DNA of 64,000 nt from an uncultured Alphaproteobacteria bacterium (GTDB lineage Bacteria > Pseudomonadota > Alphaproteobacteria > GCA-2731375): positions 386,557 through 450,556 of the forward strand of contig CATOSZ010000003.1 of the NCBI GenBank assembly GCA_951812805.1, read 5' to 3'. The notes beneath the pieces were generated by a model. That model worked only from the letters and a program-made list of their open reading frames with translations, did not search any database and had not been told where the DNA came from. Made by a program: the position numbers and the translations under genes. Positions 12,140-39,538 of the stretch are shown in pieces. The stretch's first letter is position 1; every line of letters begins with the position of its first letter.

Positions 12140-12865
12140 ATGGCAGAACGACCATCGGGACGCGCAGCCGACGAGATGCGCAAGGTGAGCCTCGAGCCCG
12201 GCTTCGCCAAGCATGCGGAAGGCTCCTGCCTGGTCCGCTTCGGCGATACCCACGTGCTCTGCTGTGCCAGCCTGGACGAGCGAGTGCCGCCCTGGCTGCG
12301 CAACCAGGGCCGCGGCTGGGTGACGGCGGAATACGGCATGCTGCCGCGCTCGACCCACACCCGCACCGACCGGGAAGCCGCCCGCGGCCGGCAGAGCGGA
12401 CGCACCCAGGAAATCCAACGCCTGATCGGCCGCGCGCTGCGCGCGGTGACCCGCCTCGAGGATATGGGCGAGCGGCAGATCCGCCTCGACTGCGACGTCC
12501 TGCAGGCCGACGGCGGCACCCGCACCGCGGCGATCACCGGAGCCTGGGTCGCGCTGCACTACGCCTTTGCGCACATGCGGGCGAAGAAGCTGATCGAGAC
12601 GATGCCGCTGCACGACCACGTCGCCGCCATTTCCTGCGGCATCTACAAGGGTGCGGCGGTGCTGGACCTGGACTATGCCGAGGATTCGAACGCCGGCGCC
12701 GATGCGAACTTCGTGCTGACCGGGACGGGTGGCATCGTCGAAGTGCAGGTCACGGCCGAGGACGTGGCCTTCTCCCGCGCCGAACTCGACCGATTGCTCG
12801 ACCTCGCGACGGGGGCCGTCGGCGACCTCGTCGGCTTGCAGAAGCAGGCGATCGGGGAAGGGTGA
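12140..12865 (+). CDS. rph: ribonuclease PH
   Basis: Starts [41 protein letters not shown], a canonical Rph N-terminus; divergent from hrcA. Confidence 0.9.
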
Positions 12866-13488
12866 GTGCTACGATGGCGGCACGGATCTTCGATGGCGAT
12901 CGGCTGGTGGTGGCCAGCCACAACGCCGGCAAGGTCGTAGAAATCGAAGACCTGCTGGCACCGTTCGCCGTCACCTGCCTGTCCGCCGGCGCCCTGGGCC
13001 TGGCGGAGCCGGAGGAAACCGGCACCACCTTCGAGGCCAATGCCGAGCTGAAGGCCCACGCGGCAGCGATATCCGCGGACCTGCCGGCGCTCGCCGATGA
13101 TTCCGGCCTCGTCGTCGACGCCCTCGACGGCGCCCCGGGCATCTACTCGGCACGCTGGGGCGGACCGACGCGCGACTTCGACCACGCGATGGCCGAGGTC
13201 GAGCGCTGCCTGCGCGAGGCGGGCGCCTTGGCGATAGAACAACGGAGCGCTCATTTCATCAGCGCCCTGACCCTGGCCTGGCCCGATGGCCACGTCGAGA
13301 CGGTGACCGGGCGGGTCGACGGCCAGCTGGTCTGGCCGCCCCGGGGGGATCGCGGCTTCGGCTATGACCCGATGTTCCAGCCCGAAAATGCCGGCCTGAC
13401 CTTCGGCGAAATGGACCCGGCGGAAAAACACGCCATCAGCCACCGGGCCGACGCCTTCGCCAAGCTGATCGATGCCTGCTTCCGCTGA
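12862..13488 (+). CDS. rdgB: non-canonical purine NTP pyrophosphatase RdgB/HAM1
   Basis: Ham1 family motifs ([19 protein letters not shown]); immediately follows rph. Confidence 0.9.
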
Positions 13489-14644
13489 CCGCCCGGGCGC
13501 GCCGCTGGCAATCTATGTCCATTGGCCGTTCTGCCGGGTGAAATGCCCCTATTGCGACTTCAACAGTCATGTCCGCGACGGCGTCGACCAGGCCGACTGG
13601 CGCGCCGCCTACAGGGCGGAGATCGCCTGGTGGGCCGAACGCGTGGGCAACCGGCCCGCTGCCTCCATCTTCTTCGGTGGCGGTACGCCGTCGCTGATGG
13701 ACGAGGCGACCGTCGCCGCCGTGCTGGCGGCGATCGAGACCCACTTCGGCGTCACCGAAGACGTGGAGATTACCCTCGAGGCCAATCCCACGTCGGTGGA
13801 AGCGGCCCGCTTCGCCGGCTACCGGGCGGCCGGCGTCAACCGGGTTTCGATCGGGGTGCAGGCGCTGGAGGACGACGCGCTCGCCGCGCTCGGCCGCGAG
13901 CATTCGGCGGCCGAGGCCCGCGCGGCGGTCGAGCTCGCCGGGCGGATCTTTCCGCGCCATTCGCTGGATCTGATCTACGCCCGACCGGGACAAAGCGTCG
14001 CCGCCTGGCGGGCGGAGTTGGACCAGGCCCTGGCGCTCGCGGGCGAACACCTCTCGCTCTATCAGCTGACCATCGAGGCCGGCACGGCATTTCACACCGC
14101 GCACCGCCTAGGCCGGCTGCACCTGCCGGAGGAAGACGTGCAGGAAGCCCTGCTGGAGACGACCTGGCAGGTGACGGCCGAGGCGGGCCTGCCGGCCTAT
14201 GAGATTTCCAATCACGCCCGGCCGGGGGCGGAGAGCCGGCACAACCTCGCCTACTGGCGCGGCGGCGACTATGTCGGCATCGGGCCCGGCGCGCACGGCC
14301 GGCTGACGTTCGACGGCCGGCGACACGCGACCGTCGCCCACCGCCTGCCCGAACGCTGGCGCCAGGCGGTTCTCGACGCAGGGCATGGCCGGGAAAGCGA
14401 GGACGCGCTGGCGCCCCACATCGCGGCGGAAGAAGCCCTGATGATGGGGCTGCGCCTCGTCGAAGGCGTCGCGCGGGCCCGCTTCGACGGCACCGCCGTC
14501 GCCCGGCTGGAAGAGATGGTGAACAGCGACGCCCTCGACCGACTGGTCGAGGGCGGCTTCGTCGACGTGACGGCGGACCGCCTGCGCGCAACGCCCCAGG
14601 GGCGACGTGTCCTGAACGCGGTGCTGGCCGAACTGATCGCCTGA
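13472..14644 (+). CDS. hemW: radical SAM heme chaperone HemW (HemN-like)
   Basis: CxxxCxxC radical SAM motif ([13 protein letters not shown]); rph-rdgB-hemW synteny. Confidence 0.85.
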
Positions 14645-20447: not shown

Positions 20448-22346
20448 ATGGCTGAAGGCGAAGTCACGCGCCGGCTGACGGCGATTGTCGCCGGAGATAT
20501 CGCCGGCTACTCCCGTCTCGTTTCCGAGGACGAGGAAGGTACCCTTGCCGCCCTGCGGGCACATCGGCGCGAGCTGATCGACCCCAAGGTCGCGGCGTAT
20601 CGAGGCCGCATCGCCAACACCGCCGGCGACAGCGTTCTGATCGAGTTCCCGAGCGTTGTCGAAGCCCTGCGCTGCATGATCGACATCCAGCAGGCCATGG
20701 GGGAACGCAACGCGGATGTGCCGGAAGAACGGCGTATCCGGTTCCGCGTCGGCGTCAACCTGGGCGACGTCATCGAGCAAGAGGACGGCGATCTTCTCGG
20801 TGACGGCGTCAACGTAGCGGCGCGCCTGGAGGGCCTCGCCGAACCAGGCGGCATTTGTCTCTCTCGCGCGGCCCGCGACCAGGTGCGCGATCGGATGGAT
20901 GTCTCGTTCGAAGACTTGGGCGAGGTCGAGGTCAAGAACATCGCCCGTCCCGTGCGGACATTCCGCGTCCTTCTCGATGGCGCAGGGCCGGCGCCCGCAT
21001 CCGGCCCGACACATCGCCGGCGCGGACGCCGTAACTTCCAGGTCGCCGCCGTCGCAGTTTCGCTGGCGATCATCGGTGCCGTGTTGATTTGGCAGGAACC
21101 CTGGCGGACCGAAGTCGAAGCGGCTTCCATCGAGCGCATGGCATTCCCGCTACCCGACAAGCCATCCATTGCCGTGCTGCCCTTCTCGAACCTGTCGGAT
21201 GACGCCTCCCAGGATTTCTTCGCGGATGGCATGACCGACGACATCATCACGGACATTTCCAAGGTCTCGGGCATATTCGTCATCGCTCCGCACTCCACGC
21301 GCGGCTACAAAGACAAGGATATTCTGGATCGATCGGTCGCCGAGGAATTGGGGGTACGCTATGTACTTCGGGGCAGCGTGCGGCGCGCGGGCGGCCAGCT
21401 CCGCCTCACCGCGCGGTTGATCGACGCCATCAAAGGGGTCCACCTTTGGGCCGATCGATACGACCGCAGCGTCGAGGACGTGTTCCAGGTTCAATCCGAA
21501 TTGACGGAACAGGTCGTGAAGGCGATGGCGGTGACCCTCAAGGCCCGGGAGCAGGATCGTATCCTGCAAAAGCACGTCACGGACATCGAAGCCTACGATG
21601 CCTTCGTGCAGGCGCGGAGGATTGTCGAGGTACCCACGCCGAGCAATATCCAGAAAGGCGAGCGGCTTTTCAAGAAGACCATCGAGCTCGACCCCGAGTT
21701 CGCGGGCGGCATCGCCGGACTGTCGTTCAACCACTCGGTCAAGGCGCGGTTTGGCTACGGCCCATCGCCGCAAGAAGACGTTTCGCGGGCACTGGCCCTG
21801 GCAAGACAGGCGATCAAGGCGGATCCCGAGTTCGCCTGGTCACATATAGCGCTCGCCGGCGCGCATCTGGCGAACGGCGAACAGGACGCGGCCGTCGATG
21901 CGATGCGGCAGGCCCTCGCTATTCAGCCGGGGGGTTACGAGACCAATCTGTTCATGTCGTTCTATTTGTTCTTCGCAGGCAAGTCGGCGCTTTCCGTCGA
22001 ATATGCGGAGATCGCCGACGACTTGAGCCGCGCGCCAACCTACCGTGGCCTCTTTTTCCTGGGCATGGCCTATTTCCAGGATCGCCAGTACGCCAAGAGT
22101 GAAGCGACCTGGGACAGAATCATCCAGTCCGTCGGCATCGTAAAGCATCCGGCTTTCTATCTTTTCCAGGCGGCCTCGCAGGCTGCTCAGGACAAGATGG
22201 AAGCCGCCGGTGAGACCGTCGCGCGCTTGGAACGGATCAATCCGGAATTCCGAGTGTCGAATTTCGGCAACCTCAAGTACAACAAATCCGGGGAATTTCG
22301 TGACCGGTTGATTCGAATGGCCATCAAGGCCGGTATTCCAGAGTAG
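20448..22346 (+). CDS. class III adenylate/guanylate cyclase with C-terminal TPR-like domain
   Basis: N-terminal CHD domain (LTAIVAGDIAGYSRL ... GDGVNVAARLEGLAEPGGICLS), then a TM segment and a TPR-like C-terminus. GC is lower than the flanks. Confidence 0.85.
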   Translation: MAEGEVTRRLTAIVAGDIAGYSRLVSEDEEGTLAALRAHRRELIDPKVAAYRGRIANTAGDSVLIEFPSVVEALRCMIDIQQAMGERNADVPEERRIRFRVGVNLGDVIEQEDGDLLGDGVNVAARLEGLAEPGGICLSRAARDQVRDRMDVSFEDLGEVEVKNIARPVRTFRVLLDGAGPAPASGPTHRRRGRRNFQVAAVAVSLAIIGAVLIWQEPWRTEVEAASIERMAFPLPDKPSIAVLPFSNLSDDASQDFFADGMTDDIITDISKVSGIFVIAPHSTRGYKDKDILDRSVAEELGVRYVLRGSVRRAGGQLRLTARLIDAIKGVHLWADRYDRSVEDVFQVQSELTEQVVKAMAVTLKAREQDRILQKHVTDIEAYDAFVQARRIVEVPTPSNIQKGERLFKKTIELDPEFAGGIAGLSFNHSVKARFGYGPSPQEDVSRALALARQAIKADPEFAWSHIALAGAHLANGEQDAAVDAMRQALAIQPGGYETNLFMSFYLFFAGKSALSVEYAEIADDLSRAPTYRGLFFLGMAYFQDRQYAKSEATWDRIIQSVGIVKHPAFYLFQAASQAAQDKMEAAGETVARLERINPEFRVSNFGNLKYNKSGEFRDRLIRMAIKAGIPE

Positions 22347-22477
22347 ATTCCGAAGAACGGACCGATGGCGTTTTATTCCCGCGAAGACCGCCACGGAAGA
22401 AGGCATCGCGATTTCTGATTATGGCGTACTCCGGGGGAATGGTCCCGCCGGCATCCGCCTTGCGTCCGACGCCGCAC

Positions 22478-22535
22478 CTCAGGCTTTGGGCACGTCGTAA
22501 CGGTTCAGGAGATCGTCGACGATGCCGTCGAGTTC
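22478..22535. repeat. direct repeat copy 1 (~57 bp; core 48 bp with 1 mismatch) = 3' tail plus stop of HpaB-like gene
   Basis: Core gggcacgtcgtaacggttcaggag[a/g]tcgtcgacgatgccgtcgagttc is shared with 25047-25094. Flanks differ on both sides. Confidence 0.7.
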
Positions 22536-22667
22536 GCCCCACAGCTCGGCCCGGTGCGCCTTCATGCGGGCGAGCGTGCCGGCTTCGTCCGCCTGCATCA
22601 GGCGCGAGTAACCGACGACGTCGGCGGCGAGCACGGCCGCGAGCCCGCGTTCAATGGCCTCGGACAT
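22479..22667 (-). pseudogene. chimeric remnant: first ~45 codons of a second class III adenylate cyclase fused to the 3' tail of an HpaB-like gene
   Basis: The N-terminus LAAVLAADVVGYSRLMQADEAGTLARMKAHRAELW parallels the N-terminus of the 20448 cyclase. The C-terminus ELDGIVDDLLNRYDVPKA* is the same tail as the 25038-25481 fragment, and is part of the direct repeat. Confidence 0.5.
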
Positions 22668-23692
22668 GTTCTCAGTCTAGCGGAACGGCTGGGGAACAGG
22701 AACGGCCCGTCGAGAAGTTCAACGGCCGAAACATTCGGCTTTCCGGCCGGGGAGGAGCCGGCGCTCTTGGGGTGCAACGCCGTCGTCAACGCTCGACGTC
22801 GAACCACGGGCGAATACAATTCACTGGTCGCCGCGGGCGTCGCTCCCGTCATCGAGGGGCCTCGCCAAGTATCCATCCGTCACGGGTGCCTGAGCTCAGT
22901 ATCCATCGCAGGGATATCAACGTCCTCGTACCAGGTCGGCGCTGGCTTCAGCGACGCGACGCGCGAGCCGCAGTAATCGCACCGCCAATGCCCACCGCGC
23001 CGATGTCCTCCACTTGCAAAAGATCGAAATGCCGTCTGAATACACAAAATATTCATGGCATTACTTTAAGTATTTCGCCCTGGCCTTCAAATGTCATGAA
23101 AATACCGCCCTAATATTGTTGCGGCAGATGAAAAATAAATCTGAATAACATGCGCGTTTTTCATTGTAATCGTATCGTGGAGACGCCACGTATACTTGGC
23201 CGACAAATGGCTGTCGCGCCTAGATCGAGGCAAATCTCCAGATGTCCTTTAAGGAATTCTCATCCGCCCACAACGCCGCCGACACCATAAAGAAAACCGA
23301 CAAGCCCGCAGACACGGCGAGCGCCGAGCAGAAGCCGTCCAAGACCGAGGATATACCCGCGACAGAGGCGCCCGAGTCGACGTCATAGATCTCCACCGGG
23401 CCGCCCGCCGATGACATGGTGAACCGGGCATCCGGTGCGCACCTGCGACGTTGCACGCGGCGGGCAGGCGCATCGCTACGCCGTCACCACCCAGTGGCGT
23501 CAACGGCGATCGGCACCGCTGGGAATTTCGATGGCATCTGCGGGTGGGGCCGATACGCCGCCAGCCGACGTGCCGGTCATCGATACCCCGTCGGAAACTA
23601 GAGCGTAGCGCCTGCGAGTGACGAAGGAACGCGCCGAGTACGGTGGTTCTAGCGAATATCAGATTGAACGAGGACCGCAACGATGACTTGGA

Positions 23693-23806
23693 ATCAGCCG
23701 GGCGGCAGCGGTGGGGGCCCACAGCCTTCCAAGCTCGAGGAACTGCTGCGCGAGGGCCAGGACAACCTCAGGGGCGGGTTTCCCGGTGGCCGTTGATATC
23801 TTCCTG
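23693..23806 (+). pseudogene. hflK-like 5' remnant (36 codons then stop)
   Basis: MTWNQPGGSGGGPQPSKLEELLREGQDNLRGGFPGG resembles the Gly-rich N-terminus of HflK/SPFH modulators (MAWNQPG...). It is terminated by TGA and no SPFH domain follows. Confidence 0.35.
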
Positions 23807-23835
23807 GCGATCGTGCTGTTCGCAAGCACCTATCT

Positions 23836-25059
23836 GTGCTTCGTGCGTCTGCTGCGTTATCCGCGCAACTGGCTCCCCCCGCGTGGACGGAAACACTGGT
23901 CACCACGGCACTCGCGGTGGGCACGGTCGTCCATGTCGGACTGTCGTCGGACGGCATCGACGCCGCCGCCGCCACTCTCGTGGCAATTTTCATCATCGGG
24001 CTCTTCTATGTCGTCGCCGCGCCGGCGATTGCCTTCCGGCCGACGTCGCGATCAATGGAATTTCTGGCCCGCCACGCCGACCACGCCGGGCTTTGGATGT
24101 CGCTTCCGGCCCTCGTCGCTTGTGGGCTGGTTTGGAACCCGAAGATGCTGGCCGTCCTGCTCACGGCCATGGCGATCGAATTGGCCTGGTACGTCAGGCG
24201 ACGTCGGGCTGGCGGTCGACGGTCGCTCTATCGCCTCGACGATCACGATCTCGCCGTCCTGAAGCGGCAGGCGGGAGGTAATCTCGCCGTATTCGGAAAG
24301 CGTCACGGCATCCGCGAGCTGGAGATAAATGCAAACGCCGACGCCTGGCGCGGATGCACCAAGGAATCCGCACCGTGTCCCTTCAATCTCTACGTCAACC
24401 GTCTCGGTCTCAATACCGCGCCCTGTTGCCGCGAACACCTGGCGGAACTTTGTCGTTACGTCGCGTCCCAGCTCTCGGAATTGAACTTCGTATACTGGCT
24501 GGACGGGGGAACCTTGCTGGGGGCGGTCCGGGAGGACGGATCGCTTTTGAAATGGGAGGACGACGTCGATCTTTCCGTCCTGCTGCAAGACGATGCGTCC
24601 TGGGATCGGCTGGTCGCCGAACTGGGCGCCTGCTGTCAGCGGGACGGCTTTTCCTGCGACGTCTTTGCCAAAGAAGGTTACCTCACGATCTCCTACGACC
24701 CGCCGCAAGCATGGCCGCTGCTCTACGAGCGCTACAGGATGAGGGGCGAGATCCGCCTCGATCTCTTCGTCTATCGGGAGGCGGACAGCCGCGGCTCGGC
24801 GGTGGTCGAGCGGCGGCACTACAAGGCGTCGATGCCCGAGACCGAAAGTGGTGGCTATGGCGTGGCGCGCGACATCGTGCTGCCGACCTCGACGATCACT
24901 TTCCTCGGCGAAGAGTACTCCTGTCCCGGTCGACCGGTTGCCTATCTCGAACAGCTCTACGGTGACTTTCGGAAGGTGGAGTATTCCTATGTCGACGACT
25001 CGGCCGCCCAAACCCGCCGATCCTTGGATGTCGAAGATCAGGCCTCGGGCACGTCGTAA
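23836..25059 (+). CDS. LicD-family (phosphocholine/phospho-sugar transferase, fukutin-like) protein with N-terminal membrane region; probably frameshifted near its 5' end
   Basis: LicD signature YWLDGGTLLGAVREDGSLLKWEDDVDLSV. The upstream frame (from ~23711) encodes a TM segment and joins this frame at a C6 homopolymer tract (~23866-23872). Low-GC islet. Confidence 0.6.
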   Translation: MLRASAALSAQLAPPAWTETLVTTALAVGTVVHVGLSSDGIDAAAATLVAIFIIGLFYVVAAPAIAFRPTSRSMEFLARHADHAGLWMSLPALVACGLVWNPKMLAVLLTAMAIELAWYVRRRRAGGRRSLYRLDDHDLAVLKRQAGGNLAVFGKRHGIRELEINANADAWRGCTKESAPCPFNLYVNRLGLNTAPCCREHLAELCRYVASQLSELNFVYWLDGGTLLGAVREDGSLLKWEDDVDLSVLLQDDASWDRLVAELGACCQRDGFSCDVFAKEGYLTISYDPPQAWPLLYERYRMRGEIRLDLFVYREADSRGSAVVERRHYKASMPETESGGYGVARDIVLPTSTITFLGEEYSCPGRPVAYLEQLYGDFRKVEYSYVDDSAAQTRRSLDVEDQASGTS

Positions 25060-25094
25060 CGGTTCAGGAGGTCGTCGACGATGCCGTCGAGTTC
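25038..25094. repeat. direct repeat copy 2 (native 3' end of HpaB-like fragment)
   Basis: See copy 1. Confidence 0.7.
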
Positions 25095-25481
25095 ATCCCA
25101 CGGCGCCTCGCGGAAGCTGTGGCCGCGCACGATGAAGGGGGCGCCCGCATAGAATTTCTCATAGCTCTGATGGCGGCCGGCGAATTCGGAGCCGAAGAGA
25201 TCCCAGGCCAGGCGGAGCAGTTTCATGCGGGAGACGGCATCCATCTGCGGGGTTTGCCAGTAGGTCTCGAAGCGCTCGCGCAACGCCGGTTCCTGCAGAA
25301 CACTGACGTCCGCCGGCATCTGGAAGACGCCGCCACCGCAGAGCTCGCGCAGGATGTCGATGATGCCCGCGTGGTTCTCGGTACACCAATTGAGCGCCGC
25401 ATACATCATGCGCCGATTGAACGTGAGGTGGCCTTCGGGCCAGCTCTCCGCGGTGTGAATCGGCATGCAAAACTGACCCAC
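25038..25481 (-). pseudogene. C-terminal ~147 aa fragment of an HpaB-like (4-hydroxyphenylacetate 3-monooxygenase oxygenase component family) gene, 5'-truncated by an IS21-family insertion
   Basis: Only the C-terminal portion is present. The frame opens immediately inside the left end of the IS21 element. Confidence 0.5.
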
Positions 25482-25629
25482 TTTGGTGGGTTATGAGCGG
25501 TAAGAATTGACCCACCTGGAACGCTGCGGATTTCGGTAGTTCCGGACGGCGGTTTCAGTAAGTCCTGGCCACCGATTTCATAAAGTCCCGGCCGGTTCCG
25601 GGAGTTTGGCTTCGGGTGCCTTGTTGCCG

Positions 25630-26406
25630 TCAGTCGGGATTGTTTTCCGTTGTGGTTGGCTGGGTCAAGTCGGTCGTCGATTTCTTCTTTCGCATGCTGT
25701 CGCCTTTCAAGCCGATGCGGTGGGCGTTGTGGATGACGCGGTCGAGGATGGCGTCGGCGATGGTGGCCTCGCCGATCAGGTCGTGCCAGGCGGTCACGGG
25801 GATCTGCGCGGTGATGAGGGTTGAGCGTCGGTGGTATCGTTCCTCGCAGATTTCCAGGAGATCGAGGCGCTGGCGGTCGGTCAGGCCATGGGTTCCCCAG
25901 TCGTCGAGGACGAGCAGCTGGACCCGGGCGAGGCGGTCGATCAGGCGGGGCAGCCGGCCGTCGAGGCGGGCCATGGCGAGGTCCTCGAAGAGCCTGGGCA
26001 TGCGGACGTAGAGGACGGAATGATCGAGCCTGGCGGCCTGATGGGCGATGGCACAGGCGAGCCATGTCTTGCCGGTTCCGGTCTGGCCGGTGACGATGAG
26101 GTTCTCGTGTGCCTTGAGCCAGACGCCCTGGGCGAGAGAGAGGACGGCGCGGCGGTCGAGGCCTCGTTCGGCGGCGAAGTCGATGTCCTCGATGCAGGCC
26201 TCGGGGAAGCGTAGCCTGGCCTGTCTGAGGCGGTTGGCGAGGCGCTTGTCGGCGCGGGTGGCGGCCTCGCGGTCGAGCATGAGGGCGAGCCAGTCCTCGC
26301 GGTTCAATTCCGATGATTGGCCTCGCTCGGCCATGTCGCGGTAAGCCTCTGCCATGCCCTTGAAGCCGAGGGCCTGCATCTGGTCGAGGGTCGGGTGTGT
26401 CAGCAT
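25630..26406 (-). CDS. istB: IS21-family helper ATPase IstB
   Basis: Walker [14 protein letters not shown], IstB family. Real start [14 protein letters not shown]; the track ORF is 5'-extended. Confidence 0.85.
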
Positions 26407-26423
26407 GAGGTGTCTTCTCCTGG

Positions 26424-27977
26424 TTATCGGTAGTAGCCGGGGCCGCGGATGTTGGTGTGTGGCGGCAGCGGCAGAAGCGGTTCGCGCTCGGGGCGTGTGC
26501 GATCGAGGCCGGACTTGAGGATGGCGGCGAGCGATGAGTAGCTGGTCGTGTTGATGGTGAGCGCGCGTGCGCAGGCGGCCTCGACGCGTTCCGGTTCGTA
26601 TCGGCGGGCGAGCGACAAGACGCCCATGGCGCTGCGATAGCCTTGCTCGGGATGGGGCCGATCGCGGATCATCCGCTCGACCAGGAGGGCGGCGTTGGGG
26701 CCGATGCGGCTGGCCTGGTCGATCAGGCTTTGTGGCGTTCGCTCGGCATAGCGCTGGTGCGCCTTGGGCATGTGGGCCGGGATCGTGGCATGGCCGCCAT
26801 GCGGTGAGCGGCGGAGATGGCTGGCGACGCGCTTGTGGTTGTGGAAGATCTCGACCGTGCGGTGAGTGAGCCGGACTTGGACCTTGCGGCCGATCAGGCC
26901 GTGCGGCACGGAGTAGAAGCTGCGCTCGACGTCGACGTGATAGTCGGAATGGACCTTGGCGGTCTTCCATTCGGCATATTCGAAGGGCGTCGTCGGCAGG
27001 GGTGCCAGGGCCTCGCGCTCGATGGCCTCGAACATCTGGCGCCGGCTCTTTCCAAGGTTGCGCATGGGCCGCTCGTTGAGCTCCTCGAGGAGGTCGCGGA
27101 TCGCCCGGTTGAGCTGGTCGAGGGAGAAGAAGCGCGTATTGCGCAGTCTTGCCAGGATCCAGCGCTCGACGACCTGGACGGCGACTTCGACCTTGGCCTT
27201 GTCGCGCGGCTTGCGGACCCGGGTCGGCAGGACGGTGGTGTCGTAGTGCTCGGCGAGCGCGGCGAAGGTCGGGTTGAGGGTCGGCTCGAACCAGAGCGGC
27301 TTGGCGACGCCGGCCTTGAGGTTATCGCAGACGATGCTCTTGGGCACGCCGCCGAAGTAGGCGAGCGCCCGGCATTGTCCGGCGACCCAGTCGGGCAGGC
27401 GCTGGGTCAGGCTGGCGGTGGCGAAGGTGAGCGAGGAAGCGCCCAGCACGGCGACGAAGATCTGCGCGTCGTGCACCTCGCCGGTCTCGGGGTCGACGAT
27501 GTCCACCGTCTGGCCGGCATAATCGGTCTGCATGACCGCACCGGCCTCGTGGCGGTTGCGCCAGGTGGCGCCGGTGCGCCGCTTGAACGCCGTGAAGGCT
27601 TCGCAGAACCAGGTGTAGCCGTAGCCATCGGGATGTGAGGCGCGGTATTCCTGCCAGAGCAGGGTCAGCGTCACCCCCTTGCGCTTCAGCTCGGCCGCGA
27701 CCGTCGGCCAGTGCGGCTCGCACCTGTCGCGCGGGGGCCGGCCCATGCGGCGGAACAGCGTCTCTTGCAGGACCGCGTCGTCCTCGTATTCCGCCGGCAG
27801 CGGCCAGGCGGTAAGGCCGACCTCGCGGGCCCGCAGCAAATAGGTCGACACTGTCGTCTTGGAGACCTTCAGCCGTTCCGCCACCTCTCGCGCCGAGAGG
27901 CCTTGGTCATGCGTCAGCCGCAGGATCGTTCGTGCATCTCTCACCGTCGTTCGTCTCGTCTGCTTCCGTCTGGGCAT
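26424..27977 (-). CDS. istA: IS21-family transposase IstA
   Basis: N-terminal HTH ([21 protein letters not shown]) plus DDE integrase core; ~517 aa. Confidence 0.85.
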
Positions 27978-28200
27978 GTCCCCTCCCGGCAAAAGCCAAG
28001 AGGTAGACGCCGAGACGGCGCACCCGAAAGCTGAACTCAGATCGCCCCGTGATGCTGTCCGGGACTTTCCGGAATCACTGGCCGCGACTTACTGAAATCT
28101 CTGGCCAGGACTTTCCGTAATCGGTGTCCGGGACTTTCCGAAACGCGCAGAACGCTAGCATCCGCACGGAACAGTGCGGAGGAAAGAGCAGGTGGTATTG

Positions 28201-29700
28201 ATGGAAAGCGTATTGAAGATCCGACGTTGGATATTACGGGAGGGTCGGAGTATCCGATCTGTATCTCGTCAGACTGGTTTGTCGCGGAACACGATTAAGA
28301 AGTATCTGAAGGACGGCGATCCACCGAGCTATCAGCGGCGCGTTTCACCCGTCCGGCGTAAGCTTAGCGATGGCTTCGCCAGCCGGCTTCGGGCGCTCTT
28401 TGAGCAGGACCTGGGGCGCCCGCGCCGTGAGCGCCGGACGGCCAAGAAGCTTTATGAGCAGCTTGTGTCGGAAGGCTATAGCGGATCCTACTCGACGGTT
28501 CAGAGGTTTGTCCGCGACCTGAAGCGTTCTGGCGCCGGATCGGGGGATGCGTTCATTCCGTTGCACTTTACGGCAGGTGACGCGCTCCAGTTTGACTGGA
28601 GCACGGAATACGCTGTCCTGGGCGGTGTCGAGCAGAAGGTAAAGGTTGCCCACTTCCGCCTATGTCATAGCCGCAAGCCCTTTGTTGTTGCCTATCCCAG
28701 CGAATCTCAGGAGATGGTGCTGGACGCCTTTGCACGGGCGATGTCTTTCTATGGCGGCGTACCGCGCCGGGTGATCATCGACAACCCCAAGACGATGGTA
28801 ACCTATGTTTCGCGCTCTAAGGACCGTGTGTTCCATCCGCGCTTTCTGGCGTTGATGAACCACTATGTGATGGAACCGGTTGCTTGCACACCCGCGGCGG
28901 GGTGGGAGAAGGGTCAGATTGAGAACCAGGTTGGGTTCCTGCGGGGACAGCTGTTTGCGCCCAAGCCCGCCTTTGACGATCTGGATGCGCTGAACGGCTG
29001 GTTGCGTCTGCGCTGCGAGGAATTGGCGAATCGCGCCCACCCCGAACAATCGGATCGCAAGATCTCGGACGTGTTCGCAGACGAGTGCGCCGAACTGCGT
29101 CCCCTGGGCCGGGCTTTTGACGGCTATGTTGAGAAGGCCGCTCGTGTCCGCTCTACCTGTCTGGTCCAATATGCCACCAATCGCTATAGCGTCCCCTCCC
29201 GGTTCGCCGGGGAGCTTGTCTCTCTGCGCGCCTATGCGGACCGGATCGTGGTTGTGTCAGGGCAGAATGTGATTGCCGAGCACAAGCGCCGCTTTACCCG
29301 CAACGCCAGCTATTTCGAGCCCTGGCATTACCTGCCCCTACTCGACCGCAAGCCCGGCGCGCTGAGAGATGGCGCGCCCTTTGTGGGTTGGCAATTGCCT
29401 GAGGCGATGCACCGGGTCAGGGCGCATTACATGGCCGGCAAAGGCGGGGACCGGGAGTTTGTCGATCTGCTCCTGCTGGCCCAGGATCACGGGATCGAGG
29501 TGGTCGAGATAGCCTGTGAACTGGCCGTGGAGCAGAACACGCTGCGCCTTCCGGCCATCATCAATCTGATCAACCAACTGGTGGAGCCGGTCATCGCGCC
29601 ATGGGGCGAGAGCCACGCCTATCCGCAACTGACCTTGCGGCCCGAAGCGGACTGCAAGCGCTATGAGACGCTGTGCGTTGCCGGGGAGGCCGTCGCATGA
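28201..29700 (+). CDS. istA: IS21-family transposase IstA (copy 2)
   Basis: Starts MESVLKIRRWILREGRSIRSVSRQTGLSRNTIKKYL (HTH) followed by a DDE core. Confidence 0.85.
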   Translation: MESVLKIRRWILREGRSIRSVSRQTGLSRNTIKKYLKDGDPPSYQRRVSPVRRKLSDGFASRLRALFEQDLGRPRRERRTAKKLYEQLVSEGYSGSYSTVQRFVRDLKRSGAGSGDAFIPLHFTAGDALQFDWSTEYAVLGGVEQKVKVAHFRLCHSRKPFVVAYPSESQEMVLDAFARAMSFYGGVPRRVIIDNPKTMVTYVSRSKDRVFHPRFLALMNHYVMEPVACTPAAGWEKGQIENQVGFLRGQLFAPKPAFDDLDALNGWLRLRCEELANRAHPEQSDRKISDVFADECAELRPLGRAFDGYVEKAARVRSTCLVQYATNRYSVPSRFAGELVSLRAYADRIVVVSGQNVIAEHKRRFTRNASYFEPWHYLPLLDRKPGALRDGAPFVGWQLPEAMHRVRAHYMAGKGGDREFVDLLLLAQDHGIEVVEIACELAVEQNTLRLPAIINLINQLVEPVIAPWGESHAYPQLTLRPEADCKRYETLCVAGEAVA

Positions 29701-29916
29701 AAGCTTTGATAGACCAACTGATCGCCCTGAGGCTGTATGGAATGGCGGCTTGCGCCGAAGCTTTGCTGGCCGCGCGCAAGCCGCCAAGTCTGACCACTGC
29801 GATAAAGCAACTGATCGACGCCGAGACTGTAGAGCGCCGGGTGCGCTCTATCCAGCACCAAATGCGGGCCTCGAAGTTCCCCCACCATAAGGACTTCGCC
29901 ACTTTCGATTACGGCC
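29697..29916 (+). pseudogene. istB: istB (copy 2) N-terminal fragment, interrupted by IS1182 insertion
   Basis: MKALIDQLIALRLYGMAA...DFATFDYGLAA. The reading frame resumes at 31467 after the 1.55-kb insertion. Confidence 0.7.
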
Positions 29917-31466
29917 TAGCAGCCTGTCGGACTCGGGCATGCAAGGATTGGTAAGATTGGCTTGGCGGGCGTCGATGTCATGGATTTACCCCCATGAAGT
30001 TGCGAACGCGGGTTGGCCCGCCCGTTCAGGCGTGGCTGAGGACGAACATCCGCTTGATGTTCCAGGAGAGCGTGGCCAAGGTCCATTCCCCCTTCGCCTT
30101 GTCGAGGCCGCGCAGGCTGAACTGACGCAAGCCCATCACCGATTTGATGATGCCGAACACCGGCTCCGGCGTCTGCTTGCGAAGCGCGTAGAGCGCCCGG
30201 CCCTCGGGTGTGGCCAGGCGATGGCACATCGCCTCGAGCGGCGTCGGATCCTCGGGCGCTGGCGGCGCCTCGGCGAAGCGGTCCCGCCAGGAAAGATGGT
30301 GGTGCTCCCGGCCGAGCGCGATCAGCGGCGCGATCTCCGCTTCCCCGCAGGCCTCGACGTTGGCCTGGCTGAAGTAGCCGCTGTCCGCCAACAGGGTCTC
30401 GACCTCGCCAAGCCCGTCCGGCAGGCCGGCGAGTGCTTCGAGCGTCGGTTCGATCTGCTGCTTGTCGTTCGCCGCCTGCACCACGTCGGCGCTGACCACC
30501 AGCAGGCTGCCGGCGGCCACCGCAGCCTGGGCGTTGTAGCACTGCTCGAAGCCGCCGCCGGCCACCGGCATGATGCGCGAGTCCGGGTCCGTCAGGTTGA
30601 CCTGGTCCTTCGCCCGTGGCCCCGGCTCCGGCGGCTTCGGTGGCCGCCCGCCCGGCTTGCGGCCGGTCCGCGTTTCCTTCGCCTCGCGGGCTGCCAGCTT
30701 CTCTTCGTACTCCGCCTGCTCCCGCGCATGACGCTCGGCCGCCCGCGCCTCGATCTCCGCCTTCGCCGCGGCGATCGCCGCCAGCCGGTCCTCGCGCCGT
30801 GCCAGCTCCTCCGGCACGCTCATGCCGTCGGGAACCTCGGACCGGTCCGCCGCTTCCGCCAACGCCATCAACTCCGCCACCTCGGCCCGCAGCCGGGCTT
30901 CGATCTCGCCCGCACGCTGCCACGACAGGGCGCTGTGCCGGCTCGCGTCGGCATGGATCTTCGTCCCGTCCAGCGCCACCGTGCCCAGTTGCAGCATGCC
31001 GGCCTGCCGCGCCAGCAGCAGAACCTGCACGAACAGCCCCTCGATCAGCGGCAGGAAGCGACGGCGGAACGTGGCGATCGTGTCGTGGTCGGGGTGGTCG
31101 TTTGCCGCGATGAAGCGGAAGGCCACCGAATCATAGCTCGCCCGCTCCAGCTTCCGGCTGGAATGCACCCCCGTCGCGTAGCCGTAGATCAGCAGGCCCA
31201 GCAGGACGCTCGGGTGATGCGCCGCCGAGCCCGAACCACGATAGGCCTTCACGAACGCAGAGAGATCCAGCTGCTCCAGCACATCGACCACGAAGCGCGC
31301 CAGATGACGATCAGGCAGCCATTCGTCCACCGAAGGCGGCAGAAGATAGCTGGTCTCCCGGTCAACCTGTCGAAAGTTGCTCATCACAAAATCACCGCGC
31401 AGGAGAGAATCAGACCGTGACAGTGAATCTCATCTCGAAACTCGGCTCAAGTCCGACAGGCTGCTA
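29917..31466. mobile_element. IS1182-family (IS5 superfamily) insertion sequence, copy A, ~1.55 kb, flanked by TAG (CTAG) target duplication
   Basis: Sequence-identical to 36155-37705. Terminal inverted repeats cagcctgtcggact...agtccgacaggctg. Inserted at a ctag inside istB. Confidence 0.8.
30026..31387 (-). CDS. IS1182-family transposase (453 aa)
   Basis: InsH-like N-terminal domain, central coiled-coil/charged linker, DDE_Tnp_1-type C-terminus. Confidence 0.85.
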
Positions 31467-31976
31467 GCCGCCGTCACCCAAGCGCAAATCGACCCCTTCT
31501 GCTCAGGGCAGTTCACCCAGGAGGCCCACAACCTCATTCTGGTGGGCGGAACCGGTACGGGCAAAACCCACATCGCCATTGCTCTGGGGACGCTGTTGAT
31601 CAATCAGGGAAAGAAGGTCCGTTTCTTCAACGCCGTCGATCTGATCAATGCGCTGATCAAGGAACAGGCCGAAGGCAACGCCGGCAAGATCATCCGGCAA
31701 CTGACGGCCATGGATTGCGTCATCATCGACGAACTGGGCTATATCCCATTCCCCAAATCCGGCGGTGCGCTCTTGTTCCACCTGATCAGCAAACTCTATG
31801 AGAAGACCAGCGTCATCATCACCACCAATCTGGAGTTCGGGGAATGGGTCTCCGTCTTCGGAGATGCAAAAATGACAACCGCGTTGCTGGATCGTGTAAC
31901 GCATCACTGCGCAATCATCGAAACAGGCAACATGTCTTACCGCTTCGCACAAAGCAAACAGCGACGACAAAAGTAG
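31467..31976 (+). pseudogene. istB: istB (copy 2) C-terminal fragment
   Basis: Walker [14 protein letters not shown]; continues the 29697 frame across the IS1182 insertion. Confidence 0.7.
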
Positions 31977-31988
31977 CCGCCCTGTAAG

Positions 31989-32039
31989 CAAAGCCCCAGG
32001 CTGATCCGCTATATGGAGCCAATCAGCCTGGGGGCTTTC
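31989..32039. terminator. stem-loop (16-bp stem) downstream of istB
   Basis: aaagccccaggctgat ... atcagcctgggggcttt followed by a short T tract. Confidence 0.4.
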
Positions 32040-32391
32040 ATCGCAAAGGCGGGCAAATCAAAACGGGTCCTGTACAGATTGTTCTGCAAAAGGGGTTTCG
32101 TAGCTGGGGCACAAGTCCGGGCCGATGGGGTGGATGAGCTGCCTCCGGCTGGTCCGGGCTCTCGCGATCGAAATCCATGAGGACTGGCTGGATGCCAACC
32201 GCTAGCTCAACATGATCCATCTCAAGGAGAGCAAAAGCGAACGCATCCAGAAAGCCGCCTGACGGCGGCTCGGCATGCCTGGCGCTCCGAGCAATCGAAA
32301 TCTCCGCGCCAGGCATGCCGGTGGCCCTCATCGGCAGCCATGACAAACTTGCAGAACAGTCTGGACACTACTTCAAAAGCTCATTGCCACT

Positions 32392-34248
32392 TCAAGAACC
32401 CCACCTGATCCCCACGTTCCGCCGCCGGCCCGGTTGTCCCGGTGGGCCCACAGGCCCCTCCCACGCGGCTTCGCTCCGCGTAACGCAAAGCGCTACACGA
32501 AGCCGCGCGGGGCCCTCCCGTGGACTACCGGGACAACCTCCGTCGAAGCAAGGGGGGGGGTCAATTTTGCACGCCGATAGGGGGTCAGAATTAAATGCTG
32601 ATTGACACCCGGGCCGGTCGCTGGCCAGGATGTCGTCGTCCGCCGGCAGCACGCTGCGCATCCAGGCGAGGCCGGCGGCATACCAGGTCGGCGAGACCAC
32701 CGCATCGGCCCAGGATTTGCGCCGATGGAGAACGTCCTCCGGCAGCACCCCCTTCATCGATTCCCGCAGCAGCAACTTGCCTGGGCGCAGCCGGCCCGCC
32801 CGGCTCCAGGGGTTGGGGCGCGGCCGGATCGGCAGGTAGGAGGGCGGCAGGGCTTCGGCGAAATGGGCGGGCGAGACGCGCTCGACGCCGATCTCGCGCA
32901 GGACCTTCTCCCAACGGGTCACGTCGATGCAGGAGACCAGGCGGGCGAAGCTCTGATGGCGAAGGTGCGCCGCCAGCTCCATCCGGGCGAAGCCCGACGG
33001 CGCTTCGGCAATGTGCCCGCCCTCGCCCAACAGCGGCGCCATGTCGGCCGGGAAGTGGGTCCGCAAATCCGCGATGGCGCCGCGCTCGCGCAGGACCGAC
33101 AGGACCAGCAGCAGCAAACGAGGATAGAGCGGCTCCAGGCTCGGGTGCACCCGGCGCAGCCGGTGCAGATGGCGCCCGCGTCGGGTGCGCGCCCGCCAGG
33201 CGAGCGCGGTGACCAGCGCCACGCCGCCCGGCCGGGCCAGCAGGCGGGCCAGGTCCTCGAGATGGGCCATGTGACTGCCGATGCCGAAGCCGGAGAGATA
33301 ACGGGTGAAGCCATGCCGCAGGATCCGCCGGCTCGCCGGCAGCATGAAGGCCTTCGGCCAATGGGTCGGGCTTTCGGCCCGCCATACCGTTTCCGGCAGC
33401 GCCTGCAGATAGTCCTCGAAGGAGATCTTGAAGACGTGGTGGCGGATACCGAGACGCCGGGCGACCGCGACGGCGAACGGCGTCTCGCAGGGGTGGCTCG
33501 GGTCGTCGAACTCGTAGGTGAAGGCCTCGACGTTGGCGGCGCCGACGCAATCGACCGCATGGGCGGCGATGGCGGAGGAATCGATGCCGCCCGACAGGGT
33601 GACGGCGACCGGGCGCGCCGGCCCGATTGCCCGTTCCACCGCGTGGCCGAGGCGATGGCGATAGTCCCGCGCCAGCGTGGCGAGATCGCCCGCCGGCGGC
33701 TCCAGCAGGCCAGGCCAGTGCCAGCGGGGCGCTTCGACCTCGCGTCCAAGCGTCAGGGTATGGCCGGGCGGCACCTCCTCGATACCCTCAATCAACGTGC
33801 CGGTGCCGGCCATGGTGAGGCCGGCGACGACGGTCTCGTCGACGGCGCTTCGACGCAACCGGCTGTCGAGGTCGGGATGCGCCAGCAGCGGGCGGAGGGA
33901 GGCGGCGAACAGCACCAGCCCCGGCAGCCGCGCGAAGTACAACCGTTCCCCCCCGGAAAGGCCGCGCAGCAGGCGCAGGCGCCGCGCCGCGAGATCGGCC
34001 CGCGCGAGCACGAAATGCCCCTCGGGCGGAGACTCGCCGACGAGCAGGCCCTCGTGCGCCTGGACGCCGGCCGGACCGCGCGACAGCTTGCCCCGACGGG
34101 CCACGAGCCAGAGCGGGCCCTCGGAGATCTCGGCGAGGCCTTCGGGATGGCCCGGCAGGCGGGCCAGCATGCGGGCCTCGGCCAGGGTCGAGATCCGCCG
34201 TCGCGCCGGCACGTCGTCGAGCGACCATGCCCCCAGCAGATCCGACAT
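32392..34248 (-). CDS. asparagine synthase (AsnB)-like protein lacking the N-terminal catalytic Cys; 3' end runs into an IS-terminus-like sequence
   Basis: PP-loop SGGIDSS motif and Asn-synthase C-terminal domain. Starts MSDLL, with no Cys2. The last ~60 codons cross a low-GC TGTCA-ended segment at ~32574-32600. Confidence 0.7.
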   Translation of the reverse strand: MSDLLGAWSLDDVPARRRISTLAEARMLARLPGHPEGLAEISEGPLWLVARRGKLSRGPAGVQAHEGLLVGESPPEGHFVLARADLAARRLRLLRGLSGGERLYFARLPGLVLFAASLRPLLAHPDLDSRLRRSAVDETVVAGLTMAGTGTLIEGIEEVPPGHTLTLGREVEAPRWHWPGLLEPPAGDLATLARDYRHRLGHAVERAIGPARPVAVTLSGGIDSSAIAAHAVDCVGAANVEAFTYEFDDPSHPCETPFAVAVARRLGIRHHVFKISFEDYLQALPETVWRAESPTHWPKAFMLPASRRILRHGFTRYLSGFGIGSHMAHLEDLARLLARPGGVALVTALAWRARTRRGRHLHRLRRVHPSLEPLYPRLLLLVLSVLRERGAIADLRTHFPADMAPLLGEGGHIAEAPSGFARMELAAHLRHQSFARLVSCIDVTRWEKVLREIGVERVSPAHFAEALPPSYLPIRPRPNPWSRAGRLRPGKLLLRESMKGVLPEDVLHRRKSWADAVVSPTWYAAGLAWMRSVLPADDDILASDRPGCQSAFNSDPLSACKIDPPPCFDGGCPGSPREGPARLRVALCVTRSEAAWEGPVGPPGQPGRRRNVGIRWGS

Positions 34249-35863: not shown

Positions 35864-36157
35864 ATGCGAATGATGCTGAGGTGGAGCGTACCGGTGGAGC
35901 GCGGCAACGAGGCGATCGCCGACGGCACGATGGGCCGGGTGATCGGCGAGCTGATGGAGAAGCTGAAGCCGGAGGCCGCCTACTTCTGGCCGGAGCAGGG
36001 CGAGCGGGCCGGCATGATGGTTTTCGACATGGCGGGCTCCGTCGACATCCCCGCCGTCGCCGAGCCGCTGTTCGTGAATCTCGACGCCGATGTCGAGTTC
36101 AATCCCGTGATGAATGCCGAAGATCTGCAGAAGGCGCTCGCCAACCTTCCCGACTAG
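35864..36157 (+). CDS. hypothetical small protein (97 aa)
   Basis: GGGAGGGA RBS and good GC3 bias. Its TAG stop coincides with the IS1182 copy-B insertion site. Confidence 0.45.
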   Translation: MRMMLRWSVPVERGNEAIADGTMGRVIGELMEKLKPEAAYFWPEQGERAGMMVFDMAGSVDIPAVAEPLFVNLDADVEFNPVMNAEDLQKALANLPD

Positions 36158-37705: not shown

Positions 37706-37970
37706 TCCGCATTTCTCACACTATCCACGGCCTCAGCGGCGCTGTGGGCCCGACAGGGAAGGAGCGCTGCGCCGTTCGATGTGGTTCATCGTACAAGCAG
37801 TGCGACGCACCCTGTCGGGCCCACAGCGCCGCCCGAAGGGTCTATCTGGGCCGGCCGCTCGGCGAGATGCGGTCCCTCGACGTAGCCCCGCTACGCTTTT
37901 GGGCCCGCACCTCGCCGAATCGACTCGGCCCAGATAGACTGAGGCCATGGATAGTGTGAGAAATGCGGAC
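37706..37970. mobile_element. MITE-like 265-bp element with 31-bp terminal inverted repeats and nested internal palindromes, flanked by TAG
   Basis: The TIR tccgcatttctcacactatccacggcctcag pairs with ctgaggccatggatagtgtgagaaatgcgga (30/31). Internal perfect 23-bp IR gcggcgctgtgggcccgacaggg / ccctgtcgggcccacagcgccgc, and a further IR gtctatctgggccg / cggcccagatagac. Confidence 0.55.
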
Positions 37971-38123
37971 TAGGCGCGACCGACCGCGGCAAAAACACAG
38001 CCCCGTGACTTGACGGCGTGGGGCGGGGAGGCCAACAAGGGCGTCCCGCCCCGGGCGCCGTGGTCACCTGCGCCCACCCGACCCGGCGCTTACCGCCACC
38101 GCCCCGCAACCGGAGCCGTCCCC

Positions 38124-39449: not shown

Positions 39450-39538
39450 CCCCGCGTCGACAGTTCCCGGTGGACGTCCGGGCCGCCCGGCTTACATATG
39501 GGGGCGTGGCCGCTTCGCCGACGGGAGGATGTAACCCA

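Follow-up and report, generated by a model that had tools for sequence, protein, structure and literature searches.

Two short direct repeats, T1 and T2, lie 2,559 bp apart in the 64-kb window, which is the whole stretch of DNA that was analysed (Table 1). Each consists of the last 19-20 codons and the stop codon of an HpaB-family gene, in frame on the minus strand. To judge from their sequences, they are the tails of one recent hpaB gene lineage, which encodes the oxygenase component of an HpaB-family flavin-dependent monooxygenase. The locus is most likely an ordinary genome-rearrangement scar and not a mobile cassette. The general reading, a passive scar built from hpaB tails, is given a probability of roughly 85%, and the scar is without a function of its own.

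Table 1. Features of the repeat pair, the bracketed DNA and its surroundings (window positions)
Feature	Position	Strand	Content and evidence
Cyclase-TPR gene	20448-22346	+	convergent
D, spacer	22347-22478		132 nt, cyclase-TPR stop to T1 stop; presumed native hpaB downstream region
T1, orphan hpaB 3' tail	22479-22541	-	W(G)ELDGIVDDLLNRYDVPKA + stop; tblastn, self-BLAST with T2
Chimeric ORF, 62 aa	22479-22667	-	cyclase residues 1-43/44 in frame with hpaB tail residues 44/45-62
Core copy 1	22488-22535		holds 12-nt palindrome ATCGTCGACGAT encoding I-V-D-D; 47/48 with copy 2
J1, cyclase stub/hpaB tail junction	22536-22541	-	inside TGG GGC
Upstream region of cyclase stub	22668-22999		no recognisable coding remnant
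AT-rich block	23000-23250		non-coding; 43% GC vs 67% in window
Overlapping small ORFs	23220-23456	-/+	minus: 65-78 aa, membrane-like; plus: 47 aa, 23243-23386, A-rich
hflK 5' stub	23683-23797	+	37 codons; PF12221 HflK_N, 31.1 bits (cut-off 22), E 2.3e-7
LicD-family gene	23786-25059	+	GTG start 23786; multi-pass membrane N-terminus; PF04991
J3	25037/25038		LicD homology ends, hpaB homology (stop codon) begins
T2, hpaB 3' tail	25038-25100	-	WDELDGIVDDLLNRYDVPEA + stop; continuous with hpaB remnant
hpaB' remnant	25038-25460	-	C-terminal ~141 codons of HpaB-family oxygenase; PF03241, TIGR02309/02310 partial, tblastn
Core copy 2	25047-25094		47/48 with copy 1
IS21-family element #2	25459-32578		truncates hpaB; end motifs, inverted repeats, IstA/IstB/DDE domains, ORFs
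IS21 #1	~25524-28150		nested in IS21 #2
IS1182-like element	29916-31471		nested in IS21 #2

The identity of the repeats as HpaB 3' tails, put forward in the original prediction, is borne out for copy 2 by the Pfam profile of the reading frame to which it belongs (PF03241, E 1.6e-31, profile positions 71-201 of 202). For T1, tblastn with five full-length HpaB orthologues gave a match at 22482-22583, in which only the last ~20 residues match; the portion certainly derived from hpaB is 22479-22535. The two 48-nt cores were found where they had been predicted, and with the single a/g difference (A at 22512, G at 25071). When the window is compared with itself by BLAST, the pair extends without gaps to 67 nt (22479-22545 versus 25038-25104), of which 61 are identical (91%, E 1e-19); the only stronger pair in the window is a 1557-nt IS pair. 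The match begins exactly at TCA, the minus-strand stop codon. A third copy of the core is absent from both strands of the window even when up to 8 mismatches are allowed. T1 and T2 differ at 3 positions in 57 nt, or 5 in 63 nt, and are thus not a fresh duplication.

The original prediction was to be abandoned if the repeat proved to be a widespread motif of a conserved protein family. The HpaB family does have a C-terminal signature at the protein level, W-x-x-[FL]-x-x-[IV]-V-D-x-L-[LM]-x-x-Y-D-[VI]-P, but the DNA identity of the two copies is far above such conservation. The best of 79 orthologues matches the 48-nt core at 39 positions and the median is 30. Codons that are identical at the amino acid level are also identical at the nucleotide level in 54% of cases for the orthologues, versus 15/16 between T1 and T2. 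Both tails also contain a lineage-specific, derived "NR"; the string NRYDVP occurs at 0/79 genome loci, in 0/33 of the nearest proteins and in none of the JGI metagenome contigs. The common "NR" and the identical codons indicate that T1 and T2 are recently related. Independent convergence, through conservation of the family-wide C-terminal motif and codon bias alone, is hardly credible given these numbers, and T1 has no hpaB body attached to it. The residue after the tryptophan differs between the copies: T1 reads WG, the state of the nearest orthologues, and T2 reads WD.

Beyond the repeats the flanks, originally described as completely different, do essentially differ, but their likeness is slightly above chance. 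On the left, where the last 34 nt of spacer D face the LicD 3' end, 19/34 positions are identical (empirical p about 0.0003-0.003) and on the right 21/50, both against an expectation of about 28%; the values are modest and the tested length was picked after the fact.

T2 is the end of a larger hpaB fragment, which is cut at ~25460 by the end of an IS21-family element. Orthologues are 76-82% identical to it at the amino acid level (tblastn, from 25460 downward). It scores 47-59 bits against the NCBIfam models, whose cut-offs are 480-885, and it falls short of a full-length HpaB of ~480-520 aa with N-terminal and middle domains. Neither the N-terminal ~350 codons nor any other piece of hpaB was found by tblastn elsewhere in the window. 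The remnant is a dead gene, the first ~350 codons of which were lost to an IS21-associated rearrangement. The right end of the IS21 element is flanked by another broken gene. The surroundings are dense in IS elements, copies of which are 99.9% identical.

T1 is joined to a different partner. It forms the end of a small chimeric ORF, the rest of which comes from the start of a class III adenylate-cyclase-like gene (its first 43-44 codons). Over residues 5-42 the ORF shares 55% identity with the N-terminus of the adjacent cyclase-TPR protein. Most of its 64 database homologues (the ORF itself not counted) match the N-terminal part only, and among their source-given names the only function described is adenylate cyclase. 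The match in the plasmid database (blastn, rhizobial replicons) is limited to the cyclase stub, 22541-22656. An HpaB-like origin of the whole ORF, considered on account of a tblastn match reaching 22661 with 40% identity, was rejected, as residues 1-43 match cyclase N-termini (55-84%). Near J1 the cyclase relatives read ...GAA CTT TGG GGG CCG or ...CTC TGG GAA CCG (AHRAELWGP/AELWEP), which places the junction in a TGGG that hpaB (...CCG TGG GAT GAA CTC) has in common with them; 11/16 nt just upstream are also shared.

The DNA between the repeats was predicted to be a mosaic with an hflK stub and a frameshifted LicD-family gene, and this description holds. The 5' remnant of hflK was confirmed by its HflK_N domain, and its TGA stop overlaps the start codon region of LicD. 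The AT-rich block at the predicted place is real; the notion of a low-GC islet stands only for these 250 bp, the islet as a whole having 62% GC versus 67.3% in the window, a mild drop. Six-frame ORFs of 22668-22999 have no Pfam match, and the region has no plasmid match; the small ORFs at 23220-23456 match neither Pfam nor NCBIfam.

The LicD-family gene is collinear over its whole length with orthologues of ~420 aa (P0068 and P0069; 81% amino acid identity). Its frameshift, which agrees with the prediction, is a 1-nt deletion in the T+C6 run at 23874-23880, after ~29 codons, and is visible in the alignment with relatives as GGC-TCC versus GGCTTCC; it may be a true pseudogene mutation or a sequencing error. 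At the DNA level, the closest LicD relatives, L081 and L085, are 84% identical to it over 23787-25038/25045, and they have in common with the window only the LicD coding sequence and an IS. Homology to the closest relatives is bounded by the gene's own start codon and the hpaB stop codon: the relatives have a conserved upstream region in the place of which the hflK stub stands here, and at the other end the orthologues terminate 2 codons past J3. The LicD stop codon TAA (25057-25059) sits within repeat copy 2. In the relatives, LicD is found in variable, IS-flanked contexts. The junctions of the patchwork lie exactly at a start codon and at a stop codon, and one is in frame, which is somewhat unexpected for random breakage and speaks against a scar.

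Illegitimate junctions in the patchwork number at least three: one joins the cyclase stub to the hpaB tail, one the hflK stub to the LicD start, and one the LicD end to the hpaB stop codon. The structure is best read as a passive scar of microhomology-guided illegitimate rearrangement, formed where the genome is decaying and rich in IS elements. Bacterial regions of this type are known to hold gene remnants and chimeric ORFs that arose by microhomology-mediated illegitimate recombination, and the locus resembles these in its stubs (here cyclase', hflK' and hpaB'), in its in-frame chimeric ORF, in junctions that show patchy homeology and 4-6 nt of microhomology, and in adjoining nested IS elements without target-site duplications. 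Unlike them, the locus has a stub of 57-63 nt twice, in direct orientation and 2.56 kb apart, which a single simple deletion does not yield.

In the preferred sub-mechanism, the duplication of the tail would be accounted for by the following sequence of events. The starting point would have been a single hpaB gene and, convergent to it, the cyclase-TPR gene. Two template switches, both at patches that match imperfectly, would then have copied or inserted a fragment of 2.5 kb, from the cyclase stub to LicD, into the hpaB 3' end. Because the second of them would have landed ~57-63 nt upstream of the first departure point, the tail would have been duplicated; insertion of the IS21 element and three substitutions would have followed. 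The in-register similarity of the flanks on both sides is expected for junctions at homeologous patches and lends support to this sub-mechanism. The scar taken whole, with this sub-mechanism included, is judged to have somewhat better than an even chance. Template switching of the FoSTeS/MMBIR type is documented mostly from eukaryotes and, among bacteria, from tandem duplications. Templated insertions of this type resemble the locus in the ectopic insert, the short flanking target duplication and the microhomology at both junctions, but differ in that no donor copy is demonstrable here. A replicative insertion predicts a LicD donor; the LicD protein, like all proteins of the window, is a singleton in its own 90% cluster, so that one would have to assume a conservative event, or a donor that was foreign or has been lost.

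A different origin of the two tails is from two hpaB paralogues in the same orientation, recently duplicated or gene-converted. A deletion at the TGGGGC microhomology between an upstream cyclase gene and one paralogue would have left the 19-20 codons of T1, and the other paralogue would have been truncated separately by IS21. One microhomology deletion is the commonest type of spontaneous rearrangement, and the end of homology exactly at the stop codon would be natural. The WG of T1, shared with the nearest orthologues, and the confinement of the 5 differences to 3 codons (p about 0.02, a combinatorial estimate) fit as well, although the G may equally be derived from the cyclase. This origin requires, however, a dispersed recent duplication of hpaB around unrelated genes and then the independent loss of both copies, and it leaves the above-chance likeness of D to the LicD 3' end unexplained. 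The second hpaB body has left no trace in the window. A protein search with the hpaB fragment gave short proteins only (<=246 aa), none of them from a long contig of either a LicD relative or the source genome, so that a full-length paralogue would have escaped it, and a scan of GTDB genomes with it yielded orthologues that are all at <=83% identity and have no common synteny. Two paralogues are considered a possible but rather unlikely source. The single-gene scar would need fewer independent events than the destruction of two nearby recent paralogues. Recombination between paralogous gene tails, as originally suggested, has left no sign: each tail is joined illegitimately to unrelated DNA.

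The arrangement also resembles that of icd and icdC around prophage e14 (PMC13626634). In E. coli K-12, the icd 3' end and a near-identical orphan fragment, icdC, form direct repeats around the foreign DNA of e14 (and phage 21), and recombination between icd and icdC would delete the insert, leaving a hybrid tail (PMC13626634). As there, the repeats of the present locus are the 3' end of a gene and, in direct orientation, a nearly identical orphan copy of its C-terminal part. However, e14 is 15 kb long, has its own integrase and excisionase and is excised site-specifically, while here the bracket is 2.5 kb and devoid of a recombinase. Moreover, the target gene itself is destroyed here, and at the far junction a cyclase stub is fused in frame. 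A looser parallel is offered by cis-mobilizable elements (CIMEs) and Campbell-type single-crossover integration, in which short homologous direct repeats (att) flank inserted DNA without mobility genes. The likeness would be limited to direct repeats that bracket DNA without mobility genes; no integrase-linked att core was identified at the locus, and no recurrence or mobility is seen.

The locus might accordingly be viewed as a decayed integrative element, either of the e14/icd type or a non-autonomous, CIME-like island, which targeted the hpaB 3' end. T2 would be the replacement tail carried by the element, integration would have moved the native T1 to the opposite end, and the integrase and most of the element would have been lost later. 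The element-side copy stops precisely at the stop codon, the bracket is a mosaic of slightly lower GC with an AT-rich block, and the LicD genes of the relatives have variable, IS-flanked surroundings. Set against this, the only Pfam matches among the ORFs of 22421-25059 are LicD and HflK_N, with no recombinase, transposase or mobile-element family; no integrase domain is present in the ORFs scanned between 14.6 and 41 kb of the window. A second tail within +/-10 kb was found at 0/80 hpaB orthologue loci, and JGI metagenome contigs contain no match to an exact 27-mer or to the fully codon-degenerate DGIVDDLLNRYDVP pattern. Of the marks of an integrative element, gene-tail direct repeats are present at both ends; an internal integrase and recurrent occupation of the site were not found in these scans. 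A bracket of only 2.5 kb and an in-frame cyclase stub, atypical for an attP arm, also speak against a decayed element, which is improbable. Quite improbable, too, is the related proposal that T1 and T2 are attL and attR of a degraded non-autonomous islet that targets the hpaB 3' end with a replacement tail, in the manner of e14 and phage 21 at icd, and that an integrase from another locus might still mobilise in trans. It would account for one copy ending exactly at the stop codon and, if true, would supply a further case of integration at the 3' end of a protein gene with a replacement tail, the principle of which is known.

Neither terminal inverted repeats at the ends of the bracket nor att/attC-like structures were found, and the window has no tRNA genes; together with the missing recombinase and mobile-element ORFs and the lack of second tails at 80 orthologue loci, this leaves the earlier idea of a cassette exchange unsupported. 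A tRNA-linked island was rejected on the absence of tRNA genes. An integron gene cassette was rejected likewise, there being no attC-like structure, Rfam match or integrase domain in the ORFs from 14.6 to 41 kb. The repeat was correctly said not to be a target-site duplication: it is imperfect and 48-67 nt long versus the 2-14 bp of such duplications, and a transposable element was dismissed for want of end inverted repeats and an internal transposase. An RNA or regulatory role of the repeat was also discarded, all signals being at the level of noise: the folding z-scores (-1.0 to +1.3) are within shuffled controls, Rfam has no match in 21500-26000 except one sub-threshold snoRNA noise hit, and promoter and terminator counts equal the shuffled expectation.

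An artefact of long-read metagenome assembly, either a chimeric join or a collapsed repeat, is very unlikely. The source appears to be a 2.4-Mb metagenomic contig, and long reads typically err at sites such as the T+C6 run that holds the LicD frameshift. A repeat of 48-67 nt is, however, far too short to fool a long-read assembler, and misassembly does not give rise to three independent junctions marked by microhomology and an in-frame geometry; the frameshift alone is plausibly an error.

The significance of the scar goes little beyond annotation. The label "HpaB C-terminal domain protein" (142 aa) belongs to a remnant truncated by an IS, and the label "hypothetical protein" (62 aa) to a chimeric cyclase::hpaB pseudogene. 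LicD may be driven from a captured hflK promoter. A rare RecA-type crossover between the 47/48-nt repeats could still remove the islet, and the repeats predict a low-frequency deletion polymorphism. The locus offers a natural case of genes being broken up and rejoined through microhomology junctions and IS activity in an IS-rich alphaproteobacterial genome.

The repeat consists of a 48-nt core present at 22488-22535 and 25047-25094 with a single mismatch (22512 A versus 25071 G). Self-BLAST of the window returns the two copies as an ungapped pair, 22479-22545 and 25038-25104, in which 61 of 67 positions are identical (E 1e-19); the pair ranks second among the repeats of the 64 kb, the first being a pair of IS copies. 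A third copy of the core was not found on either strand of the window with 8 mismatches allowed. A chance origin of the repeat is excluded, and the near-identical repeats of the original prediction are borne out.

Both copies, T1 and T2, are 3' tails of hpaB, the gene of an HpaB-family monooxygenase oxygenase component. Nearly all members of this family end in W-x-x-[FL]-x-x-[IV]-V-D-x-L-[LM]-x-x-Y-D-[VI]-P. The possibility that the repeat is merely a widespread motif of a conserved family therefore holds for the protein, but is ruled out for the DNA: the best match to the 48-mer among 79 orthologous hpaB loci is 39/48 (median 30), and codons for identical amino acids are identical in nucleotide sequence in 54% of cases across these loci, whereas T1 and T2 share 15 of 16. 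Both tails also carry 'NR' before YDVP, a variant found in none of the 79 loci, in none of the 33 nearest proteins and, by a codon-degenerate scan, in no JGI metagenome contig. The shared codons and the variant specific to the two tails indicate that both stem from a recent common ancestor within their own lineage.

The ORF ending in T2 has a Pfam match to PF03241, the C-terminal domain of HpaB, with E 1.6e-31 over profile positions 71-201/202. Between 25460 and its stop codon it shares 76-82% identity with full-length orthologues of the HpaB family. Upstream of ~25460, hpaB gives way to an IS21-family terminal repeat, TGCAAAACTGACCCAC. Since this IS end is accompanied by the absence of N-terminal hpaB sequence anywhere in the window, the hpaB copy bearing T2 is a dead remnant.

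T1 is the end of a 62-residue ORF (22479-22667, minus strand), which reads as a chimera of a cyclase N-terminal part and an hpaB tail. Over residues 5-42 it shares 55% identity with the N-terminus of the adjacent cyclase-TPR protein. Matches of its 64 database homologues (the ORF itself not counted) are mostly confined to the N-terminal part, and every function-describing source-given name among them is adenylate cyclase. In blastn against rhizobial replicons only 22541-22656 is covered. These matches, together with the two nearest cyclase fragments, in which ...AHRAELWGP and ...AHRAELWEP are read, place the cyclase/hpaB junction, J1, within TGG GGC at 22536-22541. TGGG is common to both parents, and directly upstream 11 of 16 nt are also alike. 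The fusion is in frame, its stop codon being supplied by hpaB.

Features of the repeat region and the adjoining IS nest
Feature	Position	Remarks
T1	22479-22541 (-)	C-terminus and stop, W-G-ELDGIVDDLLNRYDVP-K-A-stop
Region upstream of cyclase stub	22668-22999	without coding signal
AT-rich block	23000-23250	43% GC
Overlapping small ORFs	23220-23456	no family match
hflK 5' stub	23683-23797	37 codons; PF12221, 31.1 bits (cut-off 22)
LicD-family gene	23786-25059	
T2	25038-25100 (-)	C-terminus and stop, W-D-ELDGIVDDLLNRYDVP-E-A-stop
IS21-family element truncating hpaB	25459-32578	istA 28174-29700; istB split, 29673-29909 and 31473-31976
Second IS21, nested	~25524-28150	
IS1182-like element, nested	29916-31471	

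The DNA between the tails is a patchwork and no single unit. The predicted contents (HpaB tails, hflK stub, frameshifted LicD) were largely right, and the small membrane ORF corresponds to a membrane-like minus-strand ORF. The description as a low-GC islet holds for the AT-rich block but is overstated for the whole, which has 62% GC versus 67.3% in the window. An A-rich 47-residue ORF on the plus strand (23243-23386), beginning MSFKEFSSAHNAAD, overlaps the membrane-like ORF; neither has a Pfam or NCBIfam match, and either one, or neither, may be a gene.

The nearest LicD genes, on contigs L081 and L085, are 84% identical in nucleotides and 81% in amino acids, the alignment running from 23787 to 25038/25045. 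Upstream, these contigs have one conserved segment in common; the hflK stub stands there in the window. The TGA stop of the stub overlaps the LicD GTG start region (GTGGCCGTTGA), and this overlap, with the LicD upstream region lost, resembles promoter capture with translational coupling. LicD is 1 nt short at T+C6 (23874-23880), where its relatives have TT+C6 or TTCCTCCC, and the frame is shifted after about 29 codons. Because the site is a homopolymer run, this could be a long-read error and not a true pseudogene mutation. LicD homology stops at 25037/25038, two codons before the end of the orthologues; this junction, J3, coincides exactly with the hpaB stop codon and the start of T1/T2 homology. 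Past it, the LicD frame continues 22 nt into T2 antisense to a TAA stop inside the repeat. The LicD neighbourhood differs from genome to genome. In L081 and L085, the closest genomes by LicD, it is also IS-rich (L081 18264-21263; L085 7136-9909 and 13190-14244), with transposases of several families and, in L081, a ParB/methylase and serine-recombinase cluster.

The proposed cassette exchange is unsupported: domains of recombinases, transposases or phage proteins are absent from the bracketed ORFs, the repeat region shows neither RNA nor attC-like structure (z-scores for folding, -1.0 to +1.3), and there is no tRNA. Rfam gave no significant match, terminal inverted repeats are absent from the bracket, and in 80 hpaB loci of other genomes no further copy of the tail lies close by. 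Prophage e14 is flanked by icd and icdC, a gene and its orphan C-terminal fragment (PMC13626634). Here too a gene end and an orphan C-terminal fragment enclose DNA, but the integrase that defines e14, and any recurrence, are absent; a degraded integrative islet of this type would be very improbable.

The terminal repeat of the outer IS21 element at ~25460 pairs with an end at 32556-32571. Its flanks are two different broken genes, hpaB and an Asn_synthase-like ORF (32392-34248, minus strand, PF00733), and no target-site duplication surrounds it. The IS21 terminal repeat supplies the last ~60 codons of the Asn_synthase-like ORF, a gene cut at its 3' end by the element. The 1.56-kb IS1182-like element (DUF772 and DDE_Tnp_1 transposase) has a second copy at 36154-37710; their 99.94% identity implies recent activity. 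L081 carries a member of the same family near LicD (12610-14061, 84% identity). Directly after the second copy lies a 35-nt inverted repeat (37702-37736 and 37939-37973, 97% complementary, 202 nt apart), which could represent a hairpin or the remains of a MITE-like element. A 967-residue ORF (38018-40921, plus strand) with two PCuAC (PF04314) copper-chaperone stretches is of unusual size for its family and may be an over-long call or a fusion.

Two models may explain how the tail came to occur twice. In the preferred one, a single ancestral hpaB and the cyclase-TPR gene would have lain in convergent orientation. The 3' end of this hpaB would have received a 2.5-kb fragment, by copying or insertion, through a pair of switches at homeologous patches, and the tail would have been duplicated when the return switch fell 57-63 nt upstream. 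Remnants of two paralogues, with one microhomology deletion joining a cyclase gene to a second hpaB, are nearly as good an explanation; they would account naturally for why the homology goes no further than the stop codon and why T1 retains the orthologue-like 'WG'. However, two nearby recent paralogues must then both be destroyed. The single-hpaB model is preferred because it needs fewer events and because the in-register similarity of both flanks exceeds chance (left 19/34, empirical p 0.0003-0.003; right 21/50; expected 28%), although this statistic was picked post hoc, which counts against the model, as do the differences between T1 and T2 (3/57 positions, or 5/63) and the absence of a LicD donor copy from the 90% cluster. 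Three illegitimate junctions (one of which has microhomology), the truncation of hpaB by an IS and the recent relatedness of the two tails are established. What the repeats mark is an ordinary scar of rearrangement, composed of pseudogene fragments and adjoining an IS nest.
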